Below are positions 3,047 through 64,000 of a DNA stretch of 64,000 nucleotides, piece by piece. Made by a program: the position numbers and the translations under genes. The notes under the pieces were generated by a model. The model did not search any database. It was given only the letters and a program-made list of their open reading frames with translations, and was not told the DNA's origin. The DNA comes from an uncultured Dehalococcoidia bacterium (lineage in GTDB: Bacteria > Chloroflexota > Dehalococcoidia > Lucifugimonadales > GCA-2712585), in NCBI GenBank assembly GCA_958295715.1, contig OY282371.1, forward strand, positions 584,133 through 648,132, written 5' to 3'. Positions within the stretch are counted from its first letter, which is position 1, and every line of letters begins with the position of its first letter.

Positions 3047-3365
3047 GTCATTCCCACTCCCTCCCCTCCGTCATTCCCGCGCAGGCGGGAAGGGCGCGTG
3101 CGCCCACTTAGTTTTGAAGAGGGTTGGTTCTGCGTTGGGGGCTTCCGAATTCCCGCCCTCCTTCCCGTCATTCCCGCCCCCTCCCCTCCGTCATTCCCGC
3201 AAAGGCGGGAATCCATCCCCTCTTACATCCCAAAACCAACGCCTCAAGGCCCGGCGGCATCCGTAGGAACGTATAAGGGACGCCTGCCGTCTGCCCCACG
3301 AGAGGAAGGAAGATGGATTCCCGCCTTTGCGGGAATGAAGAATAGAGGGATGGGAATGACGGGAA
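3047..3365. repeat. mosaic intergenic repeat block (hairpin ATTCCCGC-N4-GCGGGAAT family)
   Basis: Hairpins at 3073-3092, 3193-3212 and 3317-3336. Half-sites GTCATTCCC at 3047 and 3167, each 23 bp before the next. RS-A module with palindrome GGGCGCGTGCGCCC at 3092-3105 followed by ACTTAGTTTTG. Confidence 0.9.
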
Positions 3366-9027: not shown

Positions 9028-9405
9028 CTAGTGGCTGCCGCAGCCCCCGCTGCCGCATCCACAGCCACCCCCGCCGGCTCCACAGCCGCACCCGCCGCTG
9101 CCGCATCCCCCGGCGGCCGGATAGTCGGGGTTGGTGATGAGGAAACCCACCCGGGTGAAGTCCTCCACGAAATCTATGGTCGCCTTCTCCAAGAAGGGGG
9201 CGCTGTCCGAGTCCACCAAGAACTTGATGCCGCTCCTGTCCAGCGTGGTGTCATCCGGCTGGTCGTCGTTCTCCAGGGTCAGCATGTACTGGACGCCGCC
9301 ATGCTCGTTGGGCAGGGCTATCACCCGCAAGGGCGTGTCCTCCTTCCCCTCCTCCACCAGAACCTCCTTGATCTTCTCCATCGCTATGTCGGTGACCTGC
9401 ATCAT
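9028..9405 (-). CDS. HesB/IscA-like iron-sulfur cluster assembly accessory protein with Cys/Gly-rich C-terminal tail
   Basis: The ORF is open to 9471, but ATGATG at 9405-9400 follows GGAGAA. IscA-like core ..AMEKIKEVL..LRVIAL..GIKFLVDSDSAPFLEKATIDFVEDFTRVGFLITNP.. The tail GGCGSGGCGCGAGGGGCGCGSGGCGSH has 7 Cys. Confidence 0.7.
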   Translation of the reverse strand: MMQVTDIAMEKIKEVLVEEGKEDTPLRVIALPNEHGGVQYMLTLENDDQPDDTTLDRSGIKFLVDSDSAPFLEKATIDFVEDFTRVGFLITNPDYPAAGGCGSGGCGCGAGGGGCGCGSGGCGSH

Positions 9406-9599
9406 TTTGATTCTCCTGACGTCGTATATGCGTGTTCCGCAGGGTTTCACGGTAGCAGGTATAAGGCCCAATTGTCAACGATTGAAGAGGTTGCGCCCGG
9501 TGAACGGCCATTTAATCGAGCCGTGTTTCCCTCCTTCCGACCCGTGGGCGCCAATTTCCCGGACTGCGACGCCAAAGCGCCCTAGACGGTAGCGGGGCG

Positions 9600-9608
9600 T
9601 GGTATAAT
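9600..9608 (+). promoter_or_regulatory. extended -10 element (TGGTATAAT), duplicated copy
   Basis: Exact TGgTATAAT. It is paralogous to the 9907-9915 copy. Confidence 0.4.
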
Positions 9609-9825
9609 TCGTGCCGTATAGCCATGCTCAAGCCCAACGGTCAACCAGCTTGAAGGCCCCAGCCCTCACGGCTTCCTACAACGCCGCCGCCCTCGACTCC
9701 ATCATGGCCCAGGACTACGGCGGCCCCATGGAGGTCATAGTGGCCGACGGCTCGAACTCCCCGGCCACCTCCAAGCTCGTCCGGCGGCATTACCCCTACG
9801 TGCGGCTGGTTCCCAACCCAAATCA

Positions 9826-10033: not shown

Positions 10034-11047
10034 ATGGAATTCGTAAACCCCTCCACGGACGCTTCCCCAAAGACATCGGAACTGCCCTCTGTGTCGGTTA
10101 TCATGCCCGCCCGGAACTCGGAGACCTCCATCGCCGCCGCCCTCGACTCCATTATGGCCCAGGACTACGGCGGCCCCATGGAGGTCATAGTGGCCGACGG
10201 CTCCAACTCCCCGGCCACCTCCAAGCTCGTCCGGCGACATTACCCCTACGTGCGGTTGGTTCCCAACCCGTACCGCACCGCGTCCAACGGGCTGAACGCG
10301 GCGGTCAAGGCTTCCACCGGTCAAATCATCGTGCGCTGCGACGCCCACGCGGTCCTGCCGCCGGACTACGTCCGCCTGGCCGTGCAGACCATGACCAGGA
10401 CCGGGGCCGCCGTGGTGGGCGGGCGCCAGATACCCATCTGCTCTACCCCCTTTGAGCGCGCGGTGGGAATGGCCATCTCCACCCCTATGGGGGCAGGCGA
10501 CGCCCGCTACCGGCTGAGCCGCTCCGAAGGCCCCGTCGACACCGTATACCTGGGAGTGTTCCGGCGCGGCGCCTTTGAGGCCGTTGGGGGATTTGACCCC
10601 TGCCTGGTGAAGAGCCAGGACTCGGACTTGAACTGGCGGCTGCGCAAGGGCGGCGACACCATATGGCTTAACCCGGCCATCTCCGTCTTCTACCGGCCCC
10701 GCGGCGCCATCTCGGCCTTGGCCCACCAGTACTTCGAATATGGCCGTTGGAAGCCCGTGGTCCTGAGGCGAAACCCCTCCAACCTCAAGGCGCGCCATCT
10801 CGCCCCGCCCCTTCTAGTGTTGGGACTAGTGGCCTCGGTCATCCTTGGCGTGTTCCTAACGCCGGCCGCCGCCGCGCTGCTGCCACTCCTCTACGCCGCC
10901 GCGGCCCTCCTCGGGGCCTTGGCCATCGGCCTGCGCCGGCGCGACCCCGCCGCCCTTCTGCTGCCCCTCGTGCTGGTGACCATGCATCTGAGTTGGGGCG
11001 TCGGGTTCCTCATCCCCGCCCGGCCGGCCATTCCACCCCCCACCTAG
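10034..11047 (+). CDS. family 2 glycosyltransferase with C-terminal membrane segments
   Basis: 337 aa. GT-A N-terminus SVIMPARNSETSIAAALDSIMAQDY..EVIVADGSNS. The last ~80 aa are hydrophobic (LAPPLLVLGLVASVILGVFL..). Confidence 0.85.
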   Translation: MEFVNPSTDASPKTSELPSVSVIMPARNSETSIAAALDSIMAQDYGGPMEVIVADGSNSPATSKLVRRHYPYVRLVPNPYRTASNGLNAAVKASTGQIIVRCDAHAVLPPDYVRLAVQTMTRTGAAVVGGRQIPICSTPFERAVGMAISTPMGAGDARYRLSRSEGPVDTVYLGVFRRGAFEAVGGFDPCLVKSQDSDLNWRLRKGGDTIWLNPAISVFYRPRGAISALAHQYFEYGRWKPVVLRRNPSNLKARHLAPPLLVLGLVASVILGVFLTPAAAALLPLLYAAAALLGALAIGLRRRDPAALLLPLVLVTMHLSWGVGFLIPARPAIPPPT

Positions 11048-11104: not shown

Positions 11105-11355
11105 GGCATTCCCGCACTCACTCCCACCTGCATTCCCACGCCCCCCCTCGTCATTCCCGCGAAGGCGGGAATCCATCTTTCCCGATTCCCTGCTAACGCC
11201 ATCGTTTTCCTTTGAGAGACCGTCGGGTTGAGGCGGCAGGCTGGCCGAAGGCGTGAGAGCGACACATTGGCCGTTAGGGGTTGGGGCCTTACTGGATTCC
11301 CGTTTTCACGGGAATGACGGAAAGGAGGCGGGAATGACGGAAAGGCGGGAAAGGG
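11105..11355. repeat. mosaic intergenic repeat block (contains RS-B unit, reverse orientation)
   Basis: Hairpins at 11153-11172 and 11296-11315 (variant ATTCCCGTTTTCACGGGAAT). The segment between them is the reverse complement of 27555-27665. Confidence 0.88.
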
Positions 11356-11436: not shown

Positions 11437-11880
11437 ATGGCTGCGATTCGTCGTGCGGAGGTTACGTGGAACGGGGACCTGCTCGCCGGGAAGGGGGCGG
11501 TTACCGCCAGCGCCAGCAAGGCGTTCACCGGGATGCCCGTTACGTGGGCGGCTCGGACTAAGACGCCGGAGGGGCTCACCAGCCCCGAGGAGTTGGTGGC
11601 CGCGGCTCACGCCAGTTGCTACGCCATGGCCTTTTCCGCCGGCCTAGGCCAGGGTGGAACGCCGCCCGAAAAGCTGGAGGTGAGCGCCGAGGTCACCTTT
11701 GACAACGTGGACGGCGGTTGGCGGGTGGTGTCCAGCGCGCTGGAGGTCCGCGGGTGGGTGCCCAACATCAACATCGCGGCCTTCTCAAAGGCGGCGGAGG
11801 CGGCCAAGGACGGCTGTCCCATTTCTCAGGCATTGAAGGGGAACGTGGAACTGAGCGTCAAGGCCATCCTTATAGGATAG
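11437..11880 (+). CDS. osmC: OsmC family peroxiredoxin
   Basis: 147 aa with EELVAAAHASCYAMAF and KDGCPISQAL, the two conserved Cys contexts of OsmC. Confidence 0.9.
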   Translation: MAAIRRAEVTWNGDLLAGKGAVTASASKAFTGMPVTWAARTKTPEGLTSPEELVAAAHASCYAMAFSAGLGQGGTPPEKLEVSAEVTFDNVDGGWRVVSSALEVRGWVPNINIAAFSKAAEAAKDGCPISQALKGNVELSVKAILIG

Positions 11881-12257
11881 GCCGGCGCCGGGGCCCCGGC
11901 GTCTTCACCCGACCGGATTCCTTGGCTCCGTTATTCCCGTGCCCCGCTATGGAGGGCAGGGGGATGGCATCTCCCTCAAGGGAGGGGGGTAGCGCGATTA
12001 GGTGGGCCTTACGACCTTCTGGCCTCCCGCTTTCGGGGCATTGCGATTATGCGAAGGTCTACGAGAGGCGAGGGTGAAAAGAGGGGAGCGGCCATCGCCC
12101 TTGGCCCTTCCCGCCGGGAGGGTGGCGCTAAGGTAATAAGATTTGGTCTGAGGGACGCGCTAAGAGTTCCGGCAGAGGGGCAAGCGCAGGACCGTCCCAA
12201 CGTGTCCATAGGCGCGGGCCTGCGTAACGCGCGGCGCGCCAACGGCAAGGAGGCGAG

Positions 12258-14875: not shown

Positions 14876-15455
14876 GTCATTCCCGCGAAGGCGGGAATCC
14901 ATCCCCTCCCGTCCCTCGCCAGTGTTGCGCCGGCACAACCCGCACCACAGCGCCACACCCCCCTCGCCACCCGTCCGCCCGGCAAGGGGGTCCAGGCTCG
15001 CTAAAGTCAGGGCCTGTCATAGCGATGTAGCCTTCCTGGATTCCCGTGCAGGCGGGACTCCATCCCCTCCCGTCCCTCGCCAGTGTTGCGCCGGCACAAC
15101 CCGCACCACAGCGCCACCCCCCCCCCCCCCCCCCGCCACCCGTCCGCCCGGCAAGGGTCCAGTCTCGCTAAAGTCAGGGCCTGTCATAGCGATATAGCCT
15201 TCCTGGATTCCCGCCTACGCGGGAATGACGGAAAGGGGGGCGGGAATGACGGATGGGAAAGGCGGGAATGGCTGAAAGGGGGCGGGAATCCAGAAATCAC
15301 CAACGCTCTTCAAAACTTAAGTGGGCGCGCGCGCCCTTCCCGCCTGCGCGGGAATGGCTGAAAGGGGGGCGGGAATCCAGAAATCCCCAACGCTCCCCAA
15401 AACAAAAATGGGCGCACGCGCCCTTCCCGCCTACGCGGGAATGACGGATGGGGGG
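14876..15455. repeat. mosaic intergenic repeat block (two RS-C units, two reverse RS-A units)
   Basis: Hairpins at about 14879-14898, 15039-15058, 15206-15225, 15335-15354 and 15422-15441. RS-C is duplicated with a 161-bp period. RS-A palindromes GGGCGCGCGCGCCC and GGGCGCACGCGCCC are in minus orientation. Confidence 0.9.
15117..15134. repeat. homopolymeric C18 tract
   Basis: 18 consecutive C in the second RS-C copy, where the first copy (14957-14966) reads ACCCCCCTC. Confidence 0.97.
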
Positions 15456-15460
15456 GCGCT

Positions 15461-15797: not shown

Positions 15798-17231
15798 ATG
15801 AACGGCGCCGGCTCTGCGGAGCGGCGTCCCTCCCGCAGGCGGCGTCGCCGTCGTCGTGGAAGGACGGGCGGCCCCGTTGCAGCCCCGTCCTCCAACGGCA
15901 GAGAGCGGCAGCCCAACGAAGCCCAAGAATCTCGTGGAAGGACGGGCGGCCCCGTTGCGGCCCCGTCCTCCAACGGCAGCGAGCGGCAGCCGGACGAGTC
16001 CAAAGAACCTCGCGGAAGGACGGGCGGGCCCGTTGCGGCCCCGTCCTCCAACGGCAGGGAGTGGCAGCCCGACGCCGCCCAAGAACCCCAGGCCCAAGAA
16101 CCCCAGGAAAGTTGGTTCGGCGGCATAAAGGTGTCAGGGCTGACGGCGAGGGCCTTGGAGTCCATGGGCTACCAGGAACCCACGTCCATACAGGGGGAGG
16201 TCATCCCCTTGGTCCAGTCTGGCCGCGACGTGGTGGGCCAGGCGCAAACGGGCACGGGCAAAACGGCGGCCTTCGGCATCCCCTTGGTTGAGATGCTGGA
16301 CCCGTCCTCCAGGGAGATTCAGGCCCTGGTACTCACGCCCACCCGCGAGTTGGCCATGCAGGTGCGAGAGGACCTGTTCCGCATAGGCCAGTACCGGGGC
16401 GTCAGGACCGTCGCCATCTACGGCGGCCAGGCCATGAGCCGCCAGTTGACGGCCCTTGAGCAGACCGCCCACATTGTGGTTGGAACGCCGGGCCGCCTGA
16501 TGGACCACATGGAGCGCGGCACGGTGCGGCTGGACCGGCTGAAAATCGCGGTTCTGGACGAGGCCGACCAGATGCTGGACATCGGCTTCGCGCCGGATAT
16601 CGAGTACATCCTCAGGCGCACGCCCCGCTCCCGCCAGACGCTGTTGTTTTCGGCCACCATGCCGGTCCCGATAAAGCGGCTGGCCAGCCGGTATCTGAAG
16701 TCGCCGGCCTGGGTGCGGGTGGGGGGAGACGCGGAGCCGGTGGACGAGGTGCAGCAGGTCTATTACGAGGTGTCGGAGCGGGAACGCCCGAGTCTGCTGG
16801 ATGAGTTGCTGCGCGACAAGAGCCGCATAACCCAGGCCCTGGTTTTCCGCAGGACTAGGATGGGAGTTGACCGGTTGGAGTCGTTCTTGAGACGCCGGGG
16901 CCACGATGCCCAGGCCATTCACGGCGACATGAGCCAGGCGCAGCGAAGCGCCGTGATGCGGCGCTTCCGGGCCAAGGAGCTTAGAACGCTGGTGGCCACC
17001 AACGTGGCGGCCCGGGGGCTGGACATTCCCGCCATATCTCACGTAATCAACTTCGACATGCCGGACAACCTGGAGGAGTACGTGCATCGCATCGGGCGCA
17101 CGGCCCGCATGGGGAAGACGGGTACGGCCATAATCTTCGTGTCGGAGTGGGACTTCCCCACGCTGGACCTCATCCAGGCCCACGTGGGCGACCACTTGAG
17201 GCCGGCGGACCCGCTGTCCCTACGCAGATAG
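15798..17231 (+). CDS. DEAD-box ATP-dependent RNA helicase with repetitive N-terminal extension
   Basis: 477 aa. GGAGAA RBS 7 nt before the ATG. Q-motif ..GYQEPTSIQ, AQTGTGKTAAF, VLDEADQML, SAT and HRIGRTAR. Confidence 0.92.
   Translation: MNGAGSAERRPSRRRRRRRRGRTGGPVAAPSSNGRERQPNEAQESRGRTGGPVAAPSSNGSERQPDESKEPRGRTGGPVAAPSSNGREWQPDAAQEPQAQEPQESWFGGIKVSGLTARALESMGYQEPTSIQGEVIPLVQSGRDVVGQAQTGTGKTAAFGIPLVEMLDPSSREIQALVLTPTRELAMQVREDLFRIGQYRGVRTVAIYGGQAMSRQLTALEQTAHIVVGTPGRLMDHMERGTVRLDRLKIAVLDEADQMLDIGFAPDIEYILRRTPRSRQTLLFSATMPVPIKRLASRYLKSPAWVRVGGDAEPVDEVQQVYYEVSERERPSLLDELLRDKSRITQALVFRRTRMGVDRLESFLRRRGHDAQAIHGDMSQAQRSAVMRRFRAKELRTLVATNVAARGLDIPAISHVINFDMPDNLEEYVHRIGRTARMGKTGTAIIFVSEWDFPTLDLIQAHVGDHLRPADPLSLRR
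15855..16088 (+). repeat. 3 x 78-bp in-frame tandem repeat within the helicase CDS
   Basis: Units at 15855-15932, 15933-16010 and 16011-16088 encode GRTGGPVAAPSSNG(R/S)E(R/W)QP... Each contains the inverted repeat GGACGGG..CCCGTCC. Confidence 0.95.
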
Positions 17232-27265: not shown

Positions 27266-27371
27266 TGCTCCTCCTATGTGCCGCGCGGCTCTGTGATTGG
27301 AAAACGGCCGTTGCCGCGAAGTTGTGGGGCCATTATATGGGGCGCCTTGGCTTGAACGCAAATGAGCGCGC

Positions 27372-27705
27372 CCTCCCCTCCCGTCATTCCCGCGAAGGCG
27401 GGAAGGGCACGCGTGCCCATTTTTGTTTTGGGGAGCGGTGGTTCTGCGCTGGCGGCTTCTGGATTCTCGCCCCCTCTTTCCGTCACTCCTGCCCCTCTCA
27501 CATTTGTCATTCCCGCCTGCCCTCCCTCCCGTCATTCCCGTGAAAACGGGAATCCAGGAAGCCTTCATCACAAAACGGCCTATGAGCCGCGCTCACGACT
27601 TCCGGCCCGGCCTGCCGCCTCAACCCGACGGTCTGTCAAAGGAAAACGATGGCGTTAGCAGGGAATAGGGAAAGATGGATTCCCGCCTGCGCGGGAATGA
27701 CGGAA
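27372..27705. repeat. mosaic intergenic repeat block (RS-A + RS-B units)
   Basis: Hairpins at about 27386-27405, 27535-27554 (variant ATTCCCGTGAAAACGGGAAT) and 27678-27697. RS-A palindrome variant GGGCACGCGTGCCC at 27405-27418 followed by ATTTTTGTTTTGGGG. Confidence 0.9.
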
Positions 27706-27778
27706 AGGGGAGGCCAGCAGCCCTCTTTTGGCGGTCAGCCCTTGAGGGTGGCGTTCAGCCTCGGGACGGCGGGCGGGG

Positions 27779-35203: not shown

Positions 35204-36808
35204 CTAGGCTCCGTCGGCGTAGGGCATGGCGGCCTCCATCATCATGCCCTGCTCGCCCAGGGAGCGGTGGACCCGCTGGGCCGGCTGGTACGCCGACGGG
35301 CGGGGCGGCATTTCAAACCCACGGCCTTCCAACAGATCTGCGATTGAGCGAATCTGTATCTTGGGGTAGTCGCGGTTCCACAGGACCGAATGAAACAGGC
35401 CGCCGCCGCTCGCCTCTCTCCGCATCTCCCGCGTTGGCTCCTCCAAGGTTATGAACAGCCCCAAGGCCGCCTTCTCCCGCTCCACCACGCCCCGCAGGTC
35501 GCGGACGTGGGGGGAGGAGACCCTTCCGCCCTTGACCTGGACCACCACCTTCTGAGGGCTGCGCCGCGGCCCGTCAATGAAGTAGAGCAGCCCGTCAATG
35601 CCCCGGTCGGCGCCGCGTTTCCGCCTCTCCCGAGGTTGTGCTTCCAGCAGGGAGATAGCCCAGAACTGGAACTGGTAGGGGTCCATCTCCCACAGGGCGC
35701 GGGCGCTGCCCACGTCCAGCGGCTCGCCGACCACCTGGTAATGGAGGCGCGGCTCCAGGCTGAAAGCGGTCTTCAGGCGGTTCTTAATCAGGGCCACCGC
35801 CAGGTGTGTGACGTCAATGCCGATCCACCGGCGGCCCAGCTTCTCGGCGGCGGCCACGGCGGAGCCGCAGCCACAGAAGGGGTCCAGCACCACGTCGCCC
35901 TCCTTGGATGACGCCTGAATGATGCGCTCCAGCAGGGCTTGGGGCTTCTGGGTGGGGTAGCCCAGCCGCTCTTTGGCCTGTGAGTTGATGGGCGGCAGGT
36001 CAGTCCATACGTCTTGAAGACGCATACCCGGCATTTCGTCAAGATAACGCACGTACTCCGCAATACCGTTGCGCGTGTAGTGTATTCGCCCCTCCCTCTG
36101 CCATCGTTCCATCGTACGGCGGGGCGCGCGCCATACACGCGTAACGCCGTTCCATTCGTACTCATACCCGCCGCCGCTCAGTCCCGTTGCCGTCAGGTTG
36201 TCGGTTCGATAGAGACGGCCTTTTTCGGTCTTGTGACGGTAATGGGACTTGATGTAGTCCTGGTCGTAGGGTTGATACTGTATATTCCAGGAGAATTTTG
36301 ACCTGTCTTGGGCGTAGAGCAGGATGATGTCATGGGTGCGTCCGAGGGCCTTCGAGTCGCTGTGAGCCGACGTGCGTTTCCAGACAATCTCATTCTTGAA
36401 GTTCTTGACTCCAAACACCGAGTCCATGAGCAGCTTCAGGTAGTGGCTGGCCGTCGGGTCGCAGTGCAGGTAGATGGAGCCGGTGGGCTTGAGGACCCGG
36501 CGCAGCTCCACCAGCCGGGGGGCCATCATCACCAAGTAGGCCATCATGGCGTTCCGGCCGACGAACTGCCTGAAGGCCGCGACCATCTCCTTGACCTCCA
36601 CGGGGGTACGCGGACTGGCGATGATGTCCAGTTCGTAGGCGCGTTCCGTCTCCTGAGTCCACTCCCAGGTGTCGGTGAAGGCCTTTATCTGCGCCGGCGA
36701 CTCCTCGCCCGACCTCTCCCTGAACAGCACGTTGTAGTTGGCGTTGGAGTTGAAGGGCGGGTCCAGGTAAATCAGGTCCACCGACTCGTCGGCCACATGC
36801 TCCCGCAT
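35204..36808 (-). CDS. site-specific DNA methyltransferase (N4/N6, beta class) fused to a C-terminal Mrr/PD-(D/E)xK-like nuclease domain
   Basis: 534 aa from the first canonical ATG. Motif IV DPPF (aa 16-19) precedes motif [25 protein letters not shown]. The C-terminus reads ..[38 protein letters not shown]. Conserved residues ..[10 protein letters not shown] lie upstream of the ATG (see findings). Confidence 0.85.
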
Positions 36809-36871
36809 GACCGCCAGGTTGTCGCCGTAGTAGAGGGCGTTGGCGTGGGGACTGGGTTGAGTTTGTGTGGA

Positions 36872-36935
36872 AATTGGCCGGTTCCTTTACATCCGCGCGG
36901 GGGCGGTCATGCCCATGAGGCCGAGGGTCCGGGCC
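36872..36935. repeat. 64-bp direct repeat, left copy (pseudo 3' end of argS)
   Basis: Identical to 39136-39199 except for 2 positions. Encodes ..LGLMGMTAPARM-TAA in the argS frame. Confidence 0.95.
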
Positions 36936-39043
36936 TATGTCACCGTGCGGAAGGCTTGGTTGATCATGTGCATAGCGGACGTAATGTCTTGTTGGTTAAA
37001 GGCGTCTATGAATACCCCGCAATCACGATATCTTACATTGGGCAAAAACTTATAGTCTTCGACATTCCGCGCTATCTCTTCAGGGTCATCCGCTTCGTCA
37101 AAGTGAATTGGCAGTAGAATTCTGACATAAGAGGCCATAGGCAACAATTCCGCGAAGAACTCAGGTGGGGAGTAGTAGCAAACGGATCTACCTTCAATGA
37201 CCTCTATAACCTCCTTGTCGAATTGCTTAGTAGACTCTCTTACAGTATCTAGTAGTTGTCGGACATCGGCGCTCATCTGAAGATCATTCGAGTCTCGCTC
37301 CTTGGCTCGTTCCGTCAGTTCCCGGATATCGGTTTCTCGAACAAGTCTTTCGTCAGCCTCGTGAAATGGCCAAATTTCAAGGGCGCGATTCGCCAGAGTA
37401 GACCCCCTCTCTTTCATTTCATCCACAGTCCAGTCATGTTGAGTTCTGACGGATTCATTAAGACGCACCGCGCTCTGATTAAACCCGCCGGGAATTTCTT
37501 TCTTCTCATGGAATGGCTTGTTCGAGTAGTTGGAGTTGTAAGCCGTAAGCGTTAGGTTGCCTAACCGGTGTAGCCAGGTCTTGTGAACATCTTCCCAATC
37601 CGCTCCTAACATCTGCTGCCACTCTGTGACCTTGGCGATATCCTGCGGCATAATGTGCTCAATTGACAGTTCTTTTGTAGGACTTGGTTCCTTTTGTTCA
37701 GCGTTCTCCAAGCGTTCAAGTATGTGGGAACAGATGCGAAGTCTGTACAAATCGTTCTGCTGGATGGCTAGGCTGAACTCATCATTTGATGGAAATCTGT
37801 AGTTGTGACTCCGCCGAGCCAGGATAACTTGTAGTGACTTCAAGGGAGATTTACTCTCAATGGAATGAGACATGCTGGCAAAAACAGACCAGTAATCACG
37901 CGTTTGGAGACCTAAAACCGCGCGTCGCAGAAGATAGCTTTTGATGAGCTTCAAGGATTGAATAAAATCTTGTTCCGTAAGCGACTCCCGTTCTTCATGA
38001 CATTCGTAGAGAGTCATAATTAGTATTGCATGAGTGTTTCCAAATCCCCCCGCCCGCACGTCTGTCATCGGGGCTACAAGAGATTCATTCTGAATTGTTG
38101 AGGGCTTCAGGAATGATGTGTAGTAGCGAGCGAATCTCACCAAATTCTTCAAGAGTTCATCCGTTGGTTCTGCGCCCGCCGATTGCCGAAACTTTTTGAA
38201 CTCATCATAAATCCGGTCTGCGCGAGTCTGAGTTGTGGACTTTTGTTTGAGGGCCATATAGTCACGCAGAAATGAGTCGGGTGTACTGTCAGTATTACGA
38301 AACATACCCTCCAGCTTATACCAGTAGTCGTTGTATAGCTGAGTCTGACATTTTTCCGGCAATCCCATTAGAAGATAGTTGCGTATCAGGTCACTTTGAG
38401 TGAGTCGAACTCCTGTGGAGTTTAAGCTCTCGAAAACAAGCTGGGGATTGTCTTCAGATCTTTTGAGTGTAACGTCAACAAAGTTCAAACGCGCGATGCC
38501 TCGATAGACTTTATCGAGGTCAGCTTGAGGGGAGTTCAGCAGTTCTCTGAAGCGCTGGTAGGCGTTCATAATCATTTCTGATGGCTTTTCCACTTCGGCG
38601 CTCGGGTTTTTGTGGTAAACCAACGCTCGCAGGGTTGCGTCGTCGCGTCGTCTCAAGGCCAGTTTGCGGTTTCGATTTCCGGTCTCTTCATTGTTTCTTA
38701 GGAAGTACGTATCAATGCGACTGGCAGTGGGGCTGTCTTCAGTGTTTCCAGACCAGGACTTTTCACGGATGTGGTCGCGTAGGGCTATAAGGAGAAGGGT
38801 CAGGGTTGTTAGCCTTTGTTGGCCGTCAATCACCTGCCAACTACTGAAAGCCGCGCCGGTATCTCCTTCCACATACACGAATGAACCCATGAAGTGTCCG
38901 CTGTTGTCGCTGGCGCGCAAGATGTCGTCCCAGAGCTGACGGCATTCCTCTTCTGTCCAGCTGTAGTCTCGCTGAAAAACGGGGATCGTGAACTGTTTAG
39001 CTCCAGTGATTATCTGTGTGAATGCACGGTTTATCGCTTGCAC
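36935..39043 (-). CDS. DUF262/DUF1524 nuclease (GmrSD/BrxU/SspE-like type IV restriction enzyme family) with extra C-terminal domain
   Basis: 702 aa. GTG start 7 nt after AGGAG. DUF262 motifs IPVFQRDYSW and VIDGQQRLTTL. DUF1524/His-Me finger motifs SIEHIMPQ..HRLGNLTLTAYNSNYSNKPF. AT-rich codon usage unlike the neighbours. Confidence 0.85.
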   Translation of the reverse strand: MQAINRAFTQIITGAKQFTIPVFQRDYSWTEEECRQLWDDILRASDNSGHFMGSFVYVEGDTGAAFSSWQVIDGQQRLTTLTLLLIALRDHIREKSWSGNTEDSPTASRIDTYFLRNNEETGNRNRKLALRRRDDATLRALVYHKNPSAEVEKPSEMIMNAYQRFRELLNSPQADLDKVYRGIARLNFVDVTLKRSEDNPQLVFESLNSTGVRLTQSDLIRNYLLMGLPEKCQTQLYNDYWYKLEGMFRNTDSTPDSFLRDYMALKQKSTTQTRADRIYDEFKKFRQSAGAEPTDELLKNLVRFARYYTSFLKPSTIQNESLVAPMTDVRAGGFGNTHAILIMTLYECHEERESLTEQDFIQSLKLIKSYLLRRAVLGLQTRDYWSVFASMSHSIESKSPLKSLQVILARRSHNYRFPSNDEFSLAIQQNDLYRLRICSHILERLENAEQKEPSPTKELSIEHIMPQDIAKVTEWQQMLGADWEDVHKTWLHRLGNLTLTAYNSNYSNKPFHEKKEIPGGFNQSAVRLNESVRTQHDWTVDEMKERGSTLANRALEIWPFHEADERLVRETDIRELTERAKERDSNDLQMSADVRQLLDTVRESTKQFDKEVIEVIEGRSVCYYSPPEFFAELLPMASYVRILLPIHFDEADDPEEIARNVEDYKFLPNVRYRDCGVFIDAFNQQDITSAMHMINQAFRTVT

Positions 39044-39081
39044 TAAGCGGCTCCTGAAGATTGAGGGGTAGCTAAGCCGGA

Positions 39082-39110
39082 ATTATAGGGCATCCCGTAT
39101 TCTGCGACAA
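39082..39110 (-). promoter_or_regulatory. cassette-internal sigma-70-type promoter
   Basis: On the minus strand, TTGTCG (39110-39105), a 17-nt spacer, then TATAAT (39087-39082), 38 nt before the GTG. Confidence 0.55.
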
Positions 39111-39135
39111 TAACGGCGCAGTTGGGAGGCGATTG

Positions 39136-39199
39136 AATTGGCCTGTTCCTTTACATTCGCGCGGGGGCGGTCATGCCCATGAGGCCGAGGGTCCGGGCC
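39136..39199. repeat. 64-bp direct repeat, right copy (authentic argS 3' end)
   Basis: See the left copy at 36872-36935. This copy is contiguous with the full argS ORF. Confidence 0.95.
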
Positions 39200-40827
39200 A
39201 GGACGAGTTGGGCCGCCTCCAACAGTTTGAGGCGCGCCAGGGTCTGGCCCCGGTCGGCGGGGTCGCTGGAGAGGACGCGGCAGTTTTCGTAGAACCAGTG
39301 GAAGGCCGTGGCCAACTCCAAGGCGTAGTGGGGCAGGTGGTGGGGCTCCTGAGTGGCGGCTATCTTCTCCAGCAGTTCAGGCAGCTGCAACATCTTGCGG
39401 ATGAGGTTCAGTTCGTGGGCGTCTACGAGGAGGGACACGTCCGCCTTGGCCCAGTCGATATCCTGCTCCTTGGCCTTTGCCAGCACGCCGGCTATGCGGG
39501 CGTGGGCGTACTGGATGTAGTAGACGGGGTTTTCCGACGACTCCTTGGCGGCCAGCTTCAGGTCGAAGTCCATCTGGGTCCCGGGCGCCCTGGCCAGGAA
39601 GAAGTAGCGGCAGGCGTCGGGCCCCACCTCGTCCACCAGTTCGCGCAGGGTCACGAAGTCGCCGCTCCGCTTGGATGCCTTCACCACCTCCCGACCCCTC
39701 TTCAGGGTGACCATTTGGGCGATGATTACGTCTAGGCGTTCCGGGTCCACGCCCATGGCTCCCACGGCGGCCTTCAGGCGGGACACGTGGCCCTGGTGGT
39801 CGGCGCCCCATATGTTAATGACCTTGTCGAAGCCGCGTTTCACGAACTTGTTGTGGTGATAGGCCATGTCGGAGGCGAAGTAGGTGGGCGCGCCGCTTGA
39901 CCGCACTACCACGTTGTCGCGGTCGTCGCCCAGGGCCGCCGAGGTGAACCAGAGGGCGCCTTCCCGGTGGGCCAGATGGCCTCCTTCGCCCAGAAGGTCC
40001 AGGGTCTCCCGGTATTCGCCGCTCTCGTAGAGGAGGCTCTCTTGGAACCAGACGTGGAAGTCCACGCCCAAGCGGAGGAGGTCTTCCCGGATGAGATTCA
40101 CCATCCGCTCCCGGGCCGTGTCGCCGAGGAGTTTCAGGGCCTCTTCCCGTTCCAGGGAGGCGTACCGCTCCCCCTCTTGGTCGAGGACTTGCCGGGCAAG
40201 CTCGATAACGTAGTCCCCCTGATACCCGCCCGCCGGCAGTTGGGCATCTCTGCCCAGGGCCTCCATGTAGCGGGCGTAAACGGAGGCGTAGAACAGGTCC
40301 ATCTGGGTTCCCGCGTCGTTGAGGTAGTACTCCCGCGTCACCGAGTGGCCGGCGGCCTCCAGGATGGACGCTAGGACGCTGCCGAGGACCGCGCCGCGGG
40401 TATGTCCAACGTGGATTGGCCCCGTGGGGTTGACGCTGACGAACTCCACCATAATCTTTTGAGGGTTCTTGGCCTTGATGGCCCCGTAGCTCTCGCCGGC
40501 CTGTATGATTTCCAAGACCTGTCCTTGGAGCCATTCCTGCCGGAGGTTGAAGTTCACGAATCCGGGCGGGGCCGCCCAGACCCGTTCCACCACCTCATCA
40601 ACGGGCATGAGTTCCGTCAGGGTCCTGGCTATCTCCATGGGGGCCACGCGGGTAGAGCGGGCCAGGCGCAGGGGCAGGCTGGTGGCGAAGTCCCCGTTTT
40701 CGGGCTTGGTGGGCCGTTCCACCTCCACCGCCGGCATGGTCTCAAGGGGCATCCTCTGCTGGGCCCGGGCGTCCTCCAGGGCCTTTTCCAGTTTGGCTAT
40801 GATTAGGTCTCTTGCTAGGTTGGGCAT
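39151..40827 (-). CDS. argS: arginine--tRNA ligase
   Basis: 558 aa. Class-I HIGH motif PTGPIHVGHTRGAVLG. DALR anticodon-binding C-terminus ..YYIQYAHARIAGVL. Confidence 0.95.
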   Translation of the reverse strand: MPNLARDLIIAKLEKALEDARAQQRMPLETMPAVEVERPTKPENGDFATSLPLRLARSTRVAPMEIARTLTELMPVDEVVERVWAAPPGFVNFNLRQEWLQGQVLEIIQAGESYGAIKAKNPQKIMVEFVSVNPTGPIHVGHTRGAVLGSVLASILEAAGHSVTREYYLNDAGTQMDLFYASVYARYMEALGRDAQLPAGGYQGDYVIELARQVLDQEGERYASLEREEALKLLGDTARERMVNLIREDLLRLGVDFHVWFQESLLYESGEYRETLDLLGEGGHLAHREGALWFTSAALGDDRDNVVVRSSGAPTYFASDMAYHHNKFVKRGFDKVINIWGADHQGHVSRLKAAVGAMGVDPERLDVIIAQMVTLKRGREVVKASKRSGDFVTLRELVDEVGPDACRYFFLARAPGTQMDFDLKLAAKESSENPVYYIQYAHARIAGVLAKAKEQDIDWAKADVSLLVDAHELNLIRKMLQLPELLEKIAATQEPHHLPHYALELATAFHWFYENCRVLSSDPADRGQTLARLKLLEAAQLVLARTLGLMGMTAPARM

Positions 40828-40914: not shown

Positions 40915-43386
40915 TTAGCTCATCTCGGCGGTGGCCTTGCCATGAAAGCGGCTTAGCTGCCGGACAAGGGGTTGAAGGTCGGGGGACGATAGGTCCGGGC
41001 GCTTCTTTAGCAGACGAGCGGCCTCGTCCCTGGCCTGGGTCAGCAGGTCTCTATCGGAGAGGCGGGCCACCCGGAGGTCTGGCAAGCCGCTCTGCCGGGT
41101 GCCGAAGAGGTCGCCGGGACCTCGCAGTTCCAGGTCCACCTCGGCAAGTTGGAAGCCGTCGTGAATCCGCTCAATGGCGGTGAGGCGCTCGCGGGCGGTC
41201 TCGGAGGGGTCGTCGGCCAGGAGCAGGCAGTAGCTCTTGTGCTCTCCCCGCCCCACCCTTCCCCGGAATTGGTGGAGCTGGGCGAGGCCGAACCGGTCGG
41301 CGGACTCCACCATCATCACCGATGCGTTGGGCACGTCTATTCCCACCTCGACCACGGGGGTGGAGATGAGCACGTCTAGGTCGCCGTTGTGGAACTGCCC
41401 CATGACCCGCTCCTTTTCCCGCGCCGGCATCCTGCCGTGGAGCATACCGAGACGAAGGTCGGGGAACACGTCCTGGCTCAGGCGTTGGAGTTCCTGGGTG
41501 GCGGCCTTCACCTCTAGGGCCTCGGACTCTTCGATGAGGGGGAATATGATGAAGGCCTGCCTTCCGCTTCGCGCCTGTTTCCGCACGAATTCGTAAGCGG
41601 CGTCGCGGCGGTGGGGTTCCACCCACTTGGTGGTTATTTTCTGGCGGCCCGGCGGCATCTCGTCTATGGTGGAGATGTCAAGGTCGCCGTAGAGGGTGAG
41701 GGCCAGGGTGCGGGGGATGGGCGTGGCCGACATTACCAGCACGTGGGGGGTGACCGCGCCCTTGCCCCGGAGGGCGGCCCGCTGCATGACGCCGAACCGG
41801 TGCTGCTCGTCCACCACCGACAGGGCCAGGTTTGGAATCTCCATCTCATCCTGAATGAGGGTCTGGGTGCCGATGACGATGTCCAGGGTCCCGCCAGCGG
41901 CCTGCTGGTGGAGTTCCCGCCTCACGCTCTTCCTCAGGCTTCCCGTGATTAGCCCCACGGAGATGGGTTGGGGGTGGGGGTCTATGTATACGCTTAGCAG
42001 GTTCTTTTCCCGCGTCGGGTTGGCCAGGCCGCTCATCAGCTTGCAGACGGTGTTGAAGTGCTGCTCGGCCAACACCTCCGTTGGCGCCATTATGGACCCC
42101 TGATGGCCTTGAGCCGCCACGGCCAGGAGGGCGGCGAGGGCCACCACCGTCTTGCCGCTTCCCACCTCGCCTTGAAGGAGGCGTCGCATGGGCGGGGAGC
42201 CGCGGGTCATGTCTTGCAGGGCCTCGGCTAGGCGCTTGGTCTGGGCCCCCGTTAGCGAGAATGGAAGGCCATCCAGGAAGCTGTTGACGACCCTGTTGTC
42301 AGGCTTGATGGCCACCCCCTGGGCGTCCTCCTGCCAGTTCTTCCGGCGCAGCAGGGCCGCCATCTGGAGCAGGAAGAGTTCGTCGAAGGCCAGGCGCCGC
42401 CGGCCCTGCTCCCACGAGTCCTCATCTTTGGGGAAGTGCATCTGAAGCAGGGCCTCAGAGATGCCTAGCAGCCCCACCCGTTCCAGTACGTCACCGGGCA
42501 TGAACTCTTCCAGGGAGGGCCCCCACCGCTCCAGGGTTCGCCACATGAGGCCGCGCATGGTCCGGGGGTACAGGTCCTTGGTGAGGGGGTACACGGGGGC
42601 CAGGCGCCCGGTGTGTATGAGGGGGGTTCTCGAATTGACGACCTCATACTCCGGCGACTCCATGACCGGGGTCCTGTTGAAGAAGTCCACCTTGCCGCTC
42701 AGGGCCACCCGCGCGCCGGTCTTGAACTGCCGCGCCAGGTAGGCCTGCCCGAACCATAGGACGCGCAGGTTTCCCGTCTCGTCGCCCACAATGACCTCGG
42801 CGGCCTGGGCGTTCCCGCCCTTGCCCATGCGCTTCTCGCGGGCCTCCCACACGGCGACGATAGCCGTTCCCGTTTGGCCCCGGTTCAGGTCGGCCAGCTT
42901 GCAGAAGCGCGAATAGTCGTTGTGGCGGCGGGGGAAGTGGTATAGGAGGTCGCGGATGGTGGACACGCCCAGCCGCTCCAGCTTCTTGGCGGTCTTGGCG
43001 TCAACGCCCTGTAGCTTGGTGACGGGCTGTTCCAGTGACCCGGTCTCAGCCGCCTTTGCCCGTCTGACGGGCTTGGCCTTTGGCGGCGGGGCCGGTCTCT
43101 TTGCGGGCGGCGTCGGGGGGGATTCGCCGCTCAGCAGGGCCAGGCATCGCTCCGCCCACCGGCCCCGCTCCTCGGCGGACATCCCTGAGTAGGACTGTTT
43201 GAGGATTTTGGCGGCCTCCGCTCCACCGCCCAAAGCGTCGGAAATCTGCGCCCGCCACCGCTTGGTGAAGCCGTCTATCCCTCCAAAGACGGAGGAGTTG
43301 TCGAAGGCCTTCTTCTGCTCACGCTTCAGGATGTGGCGGAAGGCGTCGGGTGAAAAGGTCTCTTGGCGCGTGGATGTCATAGGCAC
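40915..43386 (-). CDS. recG: ATP-dependent DNA helicase RecG (with ~120-aa N-terminal extension)
   Basis: 823 aa with LKGV-like wedge region ..LQGVDAKTAKKLERLGVSTIRDLLYHFPRRH, GEVGSGKT, VVDEQHRFG and QLHQFRGRVGRG. Confidence 0.93.
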   Translation of the reverse strand: MPMTSTRQETFSPDAFRHILKREQKKAFDNSSVFGGIDGFTKRWRAQISDALGGGAEAAKILKQSYSGMSAEERGRWAERCLALLSGESPPTPPAKRPAPPPKAKPVRRAKAAETGSLEQPVTKLQGVDAKTAKKLERLGVSTIRDLLYHFPRRHNDYSRFCKLADLNRGQTGTAIVAVWEAREKRMGKGGNAQAAEVIVGDETGNLRVLWFGQAYLARQFKTGARVALSGKVDFFNRTPVMESPEYEVVNSRTPLIHTGRLAPVYPLTKDLYPRTMRGLMWRTLERWGPSLEEFMPGDVLERVGLLGISEALLQMHFPKDEDSWEQGRRRLAFDELFLLQMAALLRRKNWQEDAQGVAIKPDNRVVNSFLDGLPFSLTGAQTKRLAEALQDMTRGSPPMRRLLQGEVGSGKTVVALAALLAVAAQGHQGSIMAPTEVLAEQHFNTVCKLMSGLANPTREKNLLSVYIDPHPQPISVGLITGSLRKSVRRELHQQAAGGTLDIVIGTQTLIQDEMEIPNLALSVVDEQHRFGVMQRAALRGKGAVTPHVLVMSATPIPRTLALTLYGDLDISTIDEMPPGRQKITTKWVEPHRRDAAYEFVRKQARSGRQAFIIFPLIEESEALEVKAATQELQRLSQDVFPDLRLGMLHGRMPAREKERVMGQFHNGDLDVLISTPVVEVGIDVPNASVMMVESADRFGLAQLHQFRGRVGRGEHKSYCLLLADDPSETARERLTAIERIHDGFQLAEVDLELRGPGDLFGTRQSGLPDLRVARLSDRDLLTQARDEAARLLKKRPDLSSPDLQPLVRQLSRFHGKATAEMS

Positions 43387-53115: not shown

Positions 53116-53456
53116 CCGTCACCTCTCGCCGCCCATCCGTCATTCCCGTCCTCTCATCCCTTCCGTCATTCCCGCGAAGGCGGGAATCCATCTTTCCCTC
53201 TTTTATCCCAAAGGCAATCGCAATATGGCGCAAGCGCCAGTAAGAGCTAGTCTTGTTACGGCCAGACCGGCTTAAGGTCTCCATCCCTCGTTGAGGAGAG
53301 AGATTGGAGTGTTCTGGGTATTGGGCCGTGGCGGCGCTGTAAGGTGGGGGATGGATTCCCGCCTGCGCGGGAAGGGCGCGTGCGCCCATTTTTGTTTTTG
53401 GGGAGCGTTGGTTCTGCGTTGGGGGCTTCCTGGATTCCCGCCTGCGCGGGAACGAT
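53116..53456. repeat. mosaic intergenic repeat block
   Basis: Half-sites at about 53118 and 53139. Hairpins at about 53166-53185, 53346-53365 and 53432-53451. RS-A palindrome GGGCGCGTGCGCCC at 53374-53387 followed by ATTTTTGTTTTTGGGG. Confidence 0.9.
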
Positions 53457-54821: not shown

Positions 54822-54839
54822 CGGAGGCCTAGCGACTGA

Positions 54840-54942
54840 AAGTCCGTAGGGGAGCCGGGTGAGCCTGGCTGAGAGGGCGACCCCCGAATGTCGCCGACCC
54901 TTACGACCTGATCTGGGTAATGCCAGCGGAGGGAGCGCGGCG
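54840..54942 (+). promoter_or_regulatory. TPP (THI-box) riboswitch
   Basis: GGGGAGC..GCCUGGCUGAGA..ACCCUUACGACCUGAUCUGGGUAAUGCCAGCGGAGGGA matches the conserved TPP aptamer core (CUGAGA, ACCUGAUCUGGnUAAUgCCAGCG). An extra hairpin GGCGAC..GUCGCC occupies the variable P3 position. Confidence 0.88.
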
Positions 54943-54968
54943 CGCGTTAGGTTCGCGTATCCGACAGG

Positions 54969-61362: not shown

Positions 61363-62613
61363 ATGATGGAAATTCTGGTTGGCACTCTGATTGTGGTTCT
61401 ATTTATAGTGATAGTCGCGTTGGCGGCGGCGCTGGTCCTGCGTTCCCGCGGCGAGCAGGCCAAGCCTTCCGGCGACGCGCTGAGGGCGGAGTTCCAAGCC
61501 CTGTCTCAGGCCGCCCTGAGAGAGGCCAACGAGCAGTTTCTCGCCCTTGCGGAGCAGCGTTTCGCCCGGCTTACGGAGGCGGGATCCCACGACCTCCAGG
61601 GCAAGAAGACCCTTATCGACCAGCAGCTTGAGAATATGAAAAAGGAGTTGGGCAAGGTTACAGACCTGGTCCAGAGGGTTGAGAGGGACAGGGAGGCCAA
61701 GTTCGGGCAGCTAACCACCGAAATCAAGAACATCGGCCAGCAGGCCAACGCCCTCACCGCCTCCACGACCACCCTTAGAGAGGCCCTGGCCAGTTCCCGT
61801 TCCAGGGGCCAGTGGGGGGAGCGGATGGCCGAGGACATTCTCAGGATGATGGGGTTTGTCGAAGGGGTCAACTACGAAAGGCAGAAGAGCGTTGACGGCG
61901 GCCGTTCCCGTCCCGACTTCACCTTCCTGCTGCCCAAGAGGTTGAAGATAAACATGGACGTGAAGTTCCCCCTGGAAAACTACCTCAACTATCTTGACGC
62001 CGGTTCCGACTCCGACAGGTCAAGCTATCAGAAGGCCTTCTTGGGAGACGTTAAAGCGAGGGTTAACGAGGTTAGCGGCCGGGACTACATCGACCCGGGG
62101 CAGGGCACCGTGGACTACGTTCTCCTCTTCATTCCCAACGAAAGCGTCTACGCCTTCATACATGAGAATGACCGCAACGCCATGGATTCGGCCCTTGAGA
62201 AGAAGGTCATATGGTGCTCTCCCCTAACCCTCTACTGCGTGCTGGCCGTGGTGCGCAAGGCCGTGGAGAACTTCGCCATGGACCAGCGTTCCGACGAGAT
62301 AATTTCGCTGGTGGGGACCTTTGAAGACCAGTGGAGGAAGTTCTCAGACAGCATGGATACGCTGGGGAAGCGGTTGTCTTCCACCCAAACCGCCTTTGAC
62401 ACGCTTACCGGGGTCAGGAGCCGGGGGCTTGAGCGTTCCATAAACAGGATAGAGCAACTGCGTCAGAATCGGGGTCTCTCGGCGGCTGACCTCGGCGACG
62501 ACCTGGGCGATCTGTTCAAGCTGCCGCCGGGCCATGAGGAGGCCGGCGCGGTGGATGGCGACGGAGCCTTCCTAGACGGGGATGAGCCGAGGAGGACTGC
62601 CAACGCGCCTTGA
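61363..62613 (+). CDS. rmuC: DNA recombination protein RmuC
   Basis: 416 aa. N-terminal TM helix, long coiled-coil, and a C-terminal nuclease-like region ..RPDFTFLLP..INMDVKFPL..YVLLFIPNESVY. The last ~23 aa are encoded by the first unit of the 83-bp array. Confidence 0.88.
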   Translation: MMEILVGTLIVVLFIVIVALAAALVLRSRGEQAKPSGDALRAEFQALSQAALREANEQFLALAEQRFARLTEAGSHDLQGKKTLIDQQLENMKKELGKVTDLVQRVERDREAKFGQLTTEIKNIGQQANALTASTTTLREALASSRSRGQWGERMAEDILRMMGFVEGVNYERQKSVDGGRSRPDFTFLLPKRLKINMDVKFPLENYLNYLDAGSDSDRSSYQKAFLGDVKARVNEVSGRDYIDPGQGTVDYVLLFIPNESVYAFIHENDRNAMDSALEKKVIWCSPLTLYCVLAVVRKAVENFAMDQRSDEIISLVGTFEDQWRKFSDSMDTLGKRLSSTQTAFDTLTGVRSRGLERSINRIEQLRQNRGLSAADLGDDLGDLFKLPPGHEEAGAVDGDGAFLDGDEPRRTANAP

Positions 62614-62883
62614 CGGGCCGATTCCCCGGCGCGGTGGATAGCGACGGAGCCTTCCTAGACGGGGATGAGCCGAGGAGGACTGCCAACGCGCCTTGACGGG
62701 CCGATTCCCCGGCGCGGTGGATAGCGACGGAGCCTTCCTAGACGGGGATGAGCGGCAGAAGACTGCCGGCGCGCCTTGACGGGCCGGTTCCCCGGCGCGG
62801 TGGATGGCGATGGAGCCTTCCTAGACGGGGATGAGCCGAGGAGGACTGCCAACGCGCCTTGACGGGCTGGTTCCCCGGCGCGG
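62544..62883. repeat. 83-bp tandem repeat, ~4.1 copies
   Basis: GTGGAT(G/A)GCGA landmarks at 62551, 62634, 62717 and 62800, a period of 83. The array fills the whole convergent gap between rmuC and the SDR gene. Confidence 0.95.
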
Positions 62884-63687: not shown

Positions 63688-63770
63688 CTGCCCAGCCTCT
63701 ACAGGGTGAAGTGTGGTCAAATGATAACCAAAGCGGGACGCCAAGGCAAGAGCGGCGCCCGCCCCCCTAT

Positions 63771-64000
63771 TCGTCATTCCCGCTTCTCCCCTCCGTCATT
63801 CCCGCGCAGGCGGGAATCCATCTTCCTTACCGCCGCTGCGATAGGGCAAGAACGCCTTGGCGCGACCTAGCCCCGTTGGGGTCAAACTCGCGTGAGGGGA
63901 CTACGGGTGATGCCGGGGTTTGGGGCGTTGGTTCTGCTGTGCAGGGTTCCTGGATTCCCGCCTTCGCGGGAATGAGGGGCAGAGTGTGCGGAGAATGACG
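63771..64000. repeat. mosaic intergenic repeat block (runs off window end)
   Basis: Half-site at 63773. Hairpins at about 63797-63816 and 63953-63972. The RS tail ..GGGGCGTTGGTTCTGCTGTGCAGGGTTCCTGG resembles the RS-A tail. Confidence 0.88.

Follow-up and report, generated by a model that had tools for sequence, protein, structure and literature searches.

A GmrSD-family restriction gene between argS and a methylase gene of an uncultured Dehalococcoidia bacterium: a candidate insertion with long target duplication

Organization of the locus

The DNA considered here is a stretch of 64,000 nucleotides (the window, to which all coordinates refer) from contig OY282371.1 of assembly GCA_958295715.1, which belongs to an uncultured Dehalococcoidia/SAR202-like Chloroflexota bacterium whose nearest species-representative ArgS is 78% identical. 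Its subject is a gene for a GmrSD-family type IV restriction endonuclease, which lies between the arginyl-tRNA synthetase gene argS and a DNA methylase gene and is bracketed, together with a short promoter region, by two copies of a 64-nt direct repeat. The contig genome amounts to 2.35 Mb, so that negative results obtained from the window cover 64 kb. The insertion is strain-specific, the GmrSD gene standing between the argS stop codon and the methylase start, and with a confidence only slightly above even the case is assigned to the published class of "insertion with long target duplication" and not to the products of an element-encoded or att-specific recombinase. The features of the locus are the following.

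36936..39135, minus strand: inserted foreign DNA of 2,200 bp, absent from the conspecific contig L090
36935..39043, minus strand: GmrSD-family type IV restriction endonuclease gene, 702 aa, GTG start
39082..39110, minus strand: sigma-70-like promoter TTGTCG-17-TATAAT, matching 10 of 12 consensus positions, within the insert
39051..39055, minus strand: Shine-Dalgarno sequence AGGAG of the GmrSD gene, 7 nt upstream of its GTG start, read from the sequence
39043..39138, minus strand: upstream open reading frame of 31 codons, opened by the duplicated methylase Shine-Dalgarno sequence and ATT in the right repeat
39136..39199, minus strand: right repeat copy, comprising the genuine end of argS (46 coding nt and TAA), then a 15-nt spacer ending in CCAATT
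36872..36935, minus strand: left repeat copy, comprising a redundant argS pseudo-end and the functional Shine-Dalgarno sequence (AGGA) and ATT start (36874-36872) of the methylase gene
39151..40827, minus strand: argS, 558 aa, intact, with Pfam domains Arg_tRNA_synt_N, tRNA-synt_1d and DALR_1; the target on the upstream side
35204..36874, minus strand: gene for an N6/N4 DNA methylase with a C-terminal Mrr-like nuclease domain, with a host-like GC content at third codon positions (GC3) of 0.83; the target on the downstream side

The insert is set apart by its composition, with a GC content of 48.3% compared with 64.7% for argS, 62.9% for the methylase gene and 64.3% for the whole window. In windows of 400 nt the GC content drops to 46-48% at 37000-38600 versus 61-68% in the flanks, and GC3 amounts to 0.53 in the GmrSD gene compared with 0.86 in argS and the above value in the methylase gene. 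The insert contains exactly one gene, which is preceded by a promoter and leader region of 92 nt and runs directly into the repeat, leaving no spare DNA. The TAG stop codon of the GmrSD gene (36937-36935) obtains its last base from the first base of the left repeat. An earlier reading of this DNA, made from its letters only (the original prediction), had described an AT-rich single-gene interval with its own promoter and AGGAG ribosome-binding site and with a stop codon completed by the left repeat; all of these signals were located, and the sliding-window GC check that it had proposed returned the dip just mentioned. The TAG of the 31-codon upstream open reading frame (39045-39043) overlaps the GmrSD GTG (39043-39041), and this small frame could couple GmrSD translation to the argS transcript or to read-through, or could equally be due to chance, for which the probability is estimated at roughly 7%.

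None of the usual signs of mobility was found in or around the insert. Its ends show neither inverted nor direct repeats, the best inverted match between them being 6 nt long and at the null level; Pfam scans of 35 large open reading frames across the window recovered no integrase or transposase, and there is no tRNA gene near the cassette, the sole one in the window being a tRNA-Met at 2925-3000, 34 kb away. The same absence of integrase, transposase and tRNA in or beside the cassette had been noticed by the original prediction. With no terminal inverted repeats, no transposase in the window and a duplication of 64 bp, not one of under ~15 bp, the locus does not look like that of a transposon or insertion sequence.

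A direct repeat shared by two genes

A repeat search returned one direct pair of 64 nt (36872-36935 and 39136-39199), the copies of which are identical at 62 of 64 positions (97%) and spaced 2264 nt apart, and the 42-nt core of the repeat has two matches in the window, versus 0.00 expected from 100 shuffles. One of the two mismatches is a synonymous CGG/CGA difference in argS and the other falls in the 15-nt spacer. These results agree with the original prediction in the position of the repeats as well as in the number and nature of their mismatches, and the coding sequence at 39151-40827 bears out its view that the right copy is the true argS end, with 49 nt including TAA followed by 15 nt. 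Its description of the left copy as a redundant pseudo-end holds for argS, while it overlooked that the outer 15 nt of this copy provide the Shine-Dalgarno sequence and ATT start of the methylase gene. Since the final triplet of the repeat is the methylase ATT, the 64-mer consists of the argS end plus the methylase translation-initiation region, and the duplication consequently keeps both neighbouring genes functional. No attC-like or other special fold was detected in the 64-mers (both strands of both copies, z of +0.57 to +1.58 relative to shuffles), nor was an inverted-repeat core found in them.

The methylase start deserves attention because the repeat ends on it. The methylase frame is open upstream of the ATG at 36808 as far as the TAA of the pseudo-argS end, and the conserved N-terminal motif NALYYGDNL lies in frame within this extension. 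In a genus-level relative (contig L001), the corresponding stretch reads, from the stop codon onwards, EWSKPISTQPLYIETSNTLYYGDNL / EWSKPISTQ..NTLYYGDNL, in the same CCAATT context and with GGAG 8 nt upstream; the ISTQ codons of the window and of this relative differ by synonymous changes only. In both genera under comparison, one represented by the window and L090 and the other by L001, no canonical start codon precedes the conserved LYYGDNL motif, and the ATG at 36808 is a CTG in L090, where the ATT lies 12 nt past the argS stop codon in the same frame. Comparison of these sequences makes it appear that the methylase starts at a conserved non-canonical ATT preceded by AGGA or GGAG (36872-36874 on the minus strand of the window, 11908-11910 in L001 and 7574-7576 in L090), and not at the ATG at 36808. 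An open reading frame caller would shorten the methylase to this ATG.

The empty site and related argS loci

Species-representative loci were used for synteny, and the empty site was found through a protein search that returned an ArgS 99% identical to that of the window (P0121), encoded on contig L090. This contig aligns to the window with identities of 97.9% over 7.6 kb and of 97.75% over 8.3 kb, and it contains a single 64-mer (7513-7576) that aligns to both 39199-39136 and 36935-36872, the alignment breaking exactly at the repeat ends. In L090, the argS TAA is directly followed by AGGAAC(T)GGCCAATTTCCACACAAA(T)TCAACCC, that is AGGAACTGGCCAATT-TCCACACAAATTCAACCC, and then by the methylase gene, which is the empty site that the original prediction had expected in a relative: argS TAA adjoining the methylase gene. 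The three copies compare as follows. At position 25, a G in L090 stands against a C in the two copies of the window; at position 43, L090 and the left copy have G and the right copy has A; at position 56, the bases are T in L090, A in the right copy and C in the left copy.

The assembly of L090 is error-prone and contains frameshifted genes. That it comes from a different strain, and does not represent a collapsed assembly of one and the same strain, follows from its methylase gene, the centre of which is only 38-58% identical to that of the window; these two are the strains of the species on record (n=2). The region concerned is the following.

35990..36450, minus strand: hypervariable centre of the methylase gene, 38-58% identical to L090 (about 8136-8480), with surroundings that are 95-100% identical

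By its position between the DPPF and FCGCGS motifs, this centre looks like the target-recognition domain, which would make the difference an allelic swap of specificity. A linked arrival of the insertion and of this variable region was considered and set aside, as about 400 nt of 95-100% identity lie between them, and the two are treated as independent.

The genes that follow argS vary among the relatives compared.

Window: GmrSD gene, then the methylase-Mrr gene
L001: methylase-Mrr gene
L018 and L072: dehydrogenase gene directly
L005 and L006: 2-4 kb of host-GC metabolic genes

Core-gene order is kept in L001 to about 8 kb on each side, and since the GmrSD gene is missing from this relative and the methylase gene is present, insertion in the lineage of the window is more parsimonious than loss in L090; scarless loss in L090 through recombination between the repeats is possible. 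A duplicated argS end was found within 10 kb at none of 80 related argS loci. The exchange of different cargoes at one att site was also examined, and it was rejected because the genes that follow argS in L005 and L006 have host GC and no repeats of the argS end. A scan of metagenome contigs for the argS end (ATGACCGCCCCCGCGCGNATGTAA) gave 0 matches in a collection from which the species is absent.

Divergence between the window and L090 is not uniform. Near the junction (about 400 nt and 120 nt), 24 of 507 positions differ (4.7%) versus 81 of 3971 (2.0%) elsewhere, with a binomial p of 1.6e-4 for a region picked post hoc. The raised divergence hints that the filled allele may have been imported with short flanks by homologous recombination.

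The GmrSD-family nuclease and its homologues

The original prediction had called the 702-aa product GmrSD-like, with DUF262 and DUF1524 domains, and profile searches support this with values of 7e-38 and 1e-25: Pfam GmrSD_N (DUF262/GmrS; ParB/Srx-like) matches residues 10-225 at 7.3e-38, and GmrSD_C (DUF1524/GmrD HNH) matches residues 417-552 at 1.2e-25. It has been described that GmrSD enzymes are defined by the motifs (I/V)(I/V)DGQQRLTT, (I/L/V)(E/D)H(I/L/V)xPQ, L(G/A)NLxLLxxxN and NxxFxxKK (PMC4619093). In the protein of the window, the NTPase motif VIDGQQRLTT is present in a stretch that reads QVIDGQQRLTTLTLLL, and the HNH domain contains SIEHIMPQ, LGNLTLTAYN and NKPFHEKK. Among the PADLOC models, Orf5 (1e-154) and HEC-06 (2e-70) match this protein, and its best matches to solved structures are distant (an unnamed DUF262 protein at 1e-13 and SspE at 3e-07). 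A C-terminal extension of about 140 aa that is conserved in the family has no Pfam match, and the protein falls in a large clade whose members measure about 696-705 aa and have this extension in common. On the strength of its family membership, the protein is predicted to be an NTP-dependent nuclease that should cut modified phage DNA, for instance DNA with glucosyl-hmC, and thereby protect against phages.

No second copy of the cassette was found among 5.8 billion proteins, the next-best GmrSD protein being 66% identical, and exact look-ups of the GmrSD protein and ArgS of the window and of P0001 returned no record. Close relatives of the GmrSD protein were not found on viral contigs, and plasmids offered 35% identity at best.

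Six further genomes have homologues, each of them a lone gene with 47-49% GC at an unrelated locus. In five of these genomes, the gene lies among housekeeping genes in a background of 60-70% GC; in the sixth (L081), the flanks have about 51% GC and the gene is part of a defence island. No non-coding ends are shared between the window and any of the six homologue loci. It was considered that flanking repeats might be a hallmark of the family, a notion that was dropped because they are absent from the four loci checked (L081, L083, L088 and L089). The GmrSD gene has its own promoter where this region is readable (L082 and L088), and host sequence resumes within a few tens of bases past the GmrSD stop codon at most of the homologue loci. 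In three related genomes, orthologous GmrSD genes remain AT-rich while their flanks have diverged by 8-18%; because these orthologues keep 47-49% GC despite such divergence, low GC is to be seen as a lasting trait of the GmrSD clade and not as a clock of recency. The orthologous genes are 71-83% identical at the nucleotide level versus 82-92% for their flanks, which suggests that the GmrSD genes evolve fast or may be subject to repeated allele replacement.

One of these loci also contains a long repeat. In L082 (ENA ERZ25068482 contig_24), a 103-nt direct repeat (10124-10226 and 11153-11255, 89% identical) adjoins the orthologous GmrSD gene and flanks a hydrolase gene of host GC; it corresponds to the promoter and first 15 codons of a downstream CoA-ligase gene, and the copy that precedes the hydrolase gene gives rise to a 16-codon leader with a TGA that overlaps the ATG of this gene. 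Gene order differs among the related loci, the hydrolase gene being followed by the GmrSD gene in L088 and missing in L089. Whether long repeats that bracket single genes are a habit of the lineage was also considered, and this candidate was abandoned: most such repeats are dispersed intergenic repeats that resemble repetitive extragenic palindromic (REP) sequences, such as a palindromic repeat in L006, and only L082 resembles the case described here.

Origin of the insertion

Taken together, the evidence is judged to tip modestly towards a one-off, non-site-specific insertion of a foreign restriction gene with a 64-bp target duplication, which was kept by selection and later exchanged or lost by homologous recombination. 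A promoter-plus-gene fragment from a distant donor would have been joined illegitimately to recipient positions 64 nt apart, either through a staggered break that was filled in or through a template switch during replication, with re-entry 64 nt behind the point of exit, this joining mechanism being inferred. Only outcomes that regenerate the essential argS end would have survived, the upstream copy keeping argS whole and the downstream copy keeping the methylase translatable. Subsequently, the allele would have behaved as a presence/absence polymorphism, passed between strains by flanking homologous recombination and open to scarless loss by recombination between the two 64-mers. Several points weigh against this account. 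A 64-bp block of identity also looks like an integrase-made attL/attR pair, and the genome beyond the inspected 64-kb window could encode a recombinase. Positions 25, 43 and 56 of the repeat do not tell a true target duplication apart from a crossover between the copies of donor and recipient. It is also somewhat unexpected that a random fragment should have so tight a boundary, at which the repeat completes the stop codon. Furthermore, the polarity of the event (insertion here versus deletion in L090) is judged by parsimony with L001, from the two strains on record. A more specific version, in which the break was made or provoked by the GmrSD enzyme itself or by the resident methylase-Mrr protein and repaired by staggered fill-in, so that the nuclease would have prompted its own insertion, is regarded as quite improbable.

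Two other explanations are considered unlikely, though they merit discussion. According to one of them, the cassette was mobilized in trans, in the manner of cis-mobilizable elements (CIMEs) or pseudo-SCC (staphylococcal cassette chromosome) elements, with the 64-mers as attL and attR sites. The recombinase, of the tyrosine or serine type, would be encoded at another place in the genome or by a helper element, and the cassette could then excise as a 2,264-bp circle (...GTGACATA + 64-mer + CAATCGCC...; ...CACGGTGACATA + 64-mer + CAATCGCCTCC...) and re-integrate at the argS end. The topology fits, as direct repeats carry the 3' end of a housekeeping gene in duplicate and the empty site has a single copy; elements that keep attL and attR and lack integration genes are recognized as CIMEs (PMC5704250), and the inspected DNA was limited to 64 kb of the 2.35 Mb. 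Nevertheless, neither an integrase nor a relic of one was found in the insert, its flanks or the window, the insert has no spare DNA that could represent decayed genes, and the 64-mer has no inverted-repeat core or special structure. The duplicated argS end is likewise absent from the 80 related genomes, a second cassette copy or close relatives on viral contigs or plasmids were not found in the searches described above, and the GmrSD homologues elsewhere have no shared ends and, at the four loci checked, no flanking repeats. The Campbell-type footprint of a circular element, which was the interpretation put forward by the original prediction, is supported by topology only, since the 64-mers have no special fold, the insert has no terminal repeats, and neither duplicated argS ends at the 80 loci nor a second copy were found. 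Its alternative proposal, the eroded stump of a larger island, is unlikely because the insert is fully accounted for by the 92 nt of promoter and leader, the gene and the repeat.

The other explanation, which is given about as little weight and is partly complementary to the insertion with target duplication favoured here, invokes an arrival driven by RecA-mediated homology. Either circularized DNA with the cassette and a copy of the 64 bp entered by a single Campbell-type crossover, or a fragment of a related donor, anchored in argS, was joined illegitimately 49 nt before the argS stop codon of the recipient (homology-facilitated illegitimate recombination), in which case one repeat copy would derive from the donor and the other from the recipient. 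The divergence from L090 near the junction (4.7% versus 2.0%) suggests that flanking DNA of a more distant strain came in together with the cassette, and the two mismatches between the copies co-segregate, as they would after one crossover outside positions 43-56. The analogous 103-nt repeat of L082, with an identity of 89% that is close to the 83-92% of related genomes, is most simply interpreted as an imported donor flank. Against this, homology would explain how the allele was acquired and not how the cassette was first joined, for which a prior insertion in the donor at the CCAATT boundary is needed; 64 bp is short for an efficient RecA crossover, and the divergence test was post hoc and involves an error-prone assembly. 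Finally, an artefact in which the repeat or the insertion results from mis-joining would be conceivable in view of the source, a metagenome-assembled genome, and is deemed extremely improbable: the copies differ at 2 of 64 positions, the argS, GmrSD and methylase genes are intact with coherent regulatory signals, and an independent assembly of the other strain breaks the alignment exactly at the repeat ends.

Comparison with known systems and significance

It has been shown previously that restriction genes can be inserted with long target duplications (Nobusato, Uchiyama, Ohashi, Kobayashi 2000, Gene 259:99; Furuta, Abe, Kobayashi 2010, NAR 38:2428, PMC2853133). The latter work defined the class by a duplication of >30 bp around an insert of <20 kb, with mobility genes being absent and a related genome having an empty site; a first screen demanded both restriction (R) and modification (M) genes, and a second one took in lone type IV genes and orphan M genes (PMC2853133). 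Restriction types I to IV are all represented in the class, a lone HNH gene of type IV among them, and the repeats often span start or stop codons and leave the targets intact, these targets often being other restriction-modification genes (PMC2853133). Deviant GC and allelic variation of target-recognition domains nearby have been described for the class, and the mechanism was treated there as speculative, with double-strand breakage being proposed (PMC2853133). When set beside these definitions of Furuta et al. 2010, the present locus agrees with them in every respect, with a 2,200-bp insert, a 64-bp repeat, an empty site in L090, no mobility gene and two core matches in the 64-kb window. 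It resembles members of the class in having a restriction gene on an insert below 20 kb, repeats above 30 bp that span a stop and a start codon, and a target of the restriction-modification type, and it differs from them in its phylum, which is new to the class (Chloroflexota, Dehalococcoidia; an uncultured genome), in its cargo, which is a GmrSD gene (DUF262 plus DUF1524) and not McrA or a system of types I to III, and in that one repeat serves two genes, as the end of an essential aminoacyl-tRNA synthetase gene and as a non-canonical ATT start. The original prediction had made no link to this published precedent (PMC2853133). What is new is thus the extension of long target duplication to the Chloroflexota and to the GmrSD family, the pattern itself having already been described.

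Other known systems share some of these features. The single-chain type IV enzymes GmrSD, BrxU and Eco94GmrSD (PMC4619093, PMC4437046, PMC8565348) have the same DUF262-DUF1524 order and the DGQQR and HNH motifs, and are likewise encoded by stand-alone genes of foreign composition in a defence context; the protein of the window is only distantly related to them in sequence and possesses the additional C-terminal region of about 140 aa. As in CIMEs and pseudo-SCC elements (PMC5704250), direct repeats regenerate the 3' end of a housekeeping gene and no recombinase is found inside, whereas those elements are decayed multi-gene islands with att sites that match live integrase-bearing relatives at the same target (PMC5704250), and the present insert holds a single gene without decay products, none of 80 genomes having a related element at argS. 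The window scans and the 80 argS loci gave no integrase, relic of one or related element at the target by which an integrase-made island or CIME would be recognized. Integron cassettes are similar in being compact single genes with a stop codon that abuts the repeat on the recombination side; the present cassette differs from them by having no attC-like imperfect palindrome, by its own promoter and by a repeat that is the duplicated host target, and neither intI nor attI was found.

The locus provides an example of a defence gene entering a compact core-gene region with no mobile-element machinery and no damage to the essential gene, and it does so with filled and empty alleles in two strains that are 98% identical. 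Long target duplication at restriction genes has been a puzzle for 25 years, and the present case shows that a duplicated segment can suit two genes at once, with a stop codon and a rare ATT start. Two cautions also arise from it, namely that direct repeats at the 3' end of a gene need not mean an integrase and that low GC need not mean recent arrival. If the self-insertion version discussed above were true, restriction genes would be self-inserting elements without a recombinase, as in the unproven "virus-like life cycle" proposed by Kobayashi's group, and the 103-nt duplication of L082 would be a sign that the GmrSD family repeatedly triggers such events.

Neighbouring genes and other repeats in the window

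On the minus strand, the gene order is recG, argS, the GmrSD gene and the methylase gene, and this group converges on plus-strand genes for an alcohol-dehydrogenase-like protein and a major facilitator superfamily (MFS) transporter.

43386..40915, minus strand: recG, upstream of argS

A family of dispersed and tandem intergenic repeats of about 80-100 nt, built around the palindromic motif CGTCATTCCCGCGAAGGCGGGAA(T)G, occurs in both strains (window 3059-3177, 4464-4950, 5098-5275, 15219-15458, 27360-27714, 53138-53426 and 63748-63978; L090 16755-17561). The family looks REP-like and its spacing is not CRISPR-like. Tandem arrays are present at 62543-62883, where an 83-nt unit is repeated 4.1 times (93% matches) from the 3' end of the RmuC gene, and at 15854-16087, where a 78-nt unit is repeated three times in the 5' part of a DEAD-box helicase open reading frame. 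In a distant relative (L055), short-repeat arrays with a period of about 75 nt lie on both sides of argS (about 9360-9670, 11790-12050 and 16220-16780). Upstream of other open reading frames, the window also contains a thiamine pyrophosphate (TPP) riboswitch at 54838-54953 on the plus strand (Rfam RF00059, 64 bits).

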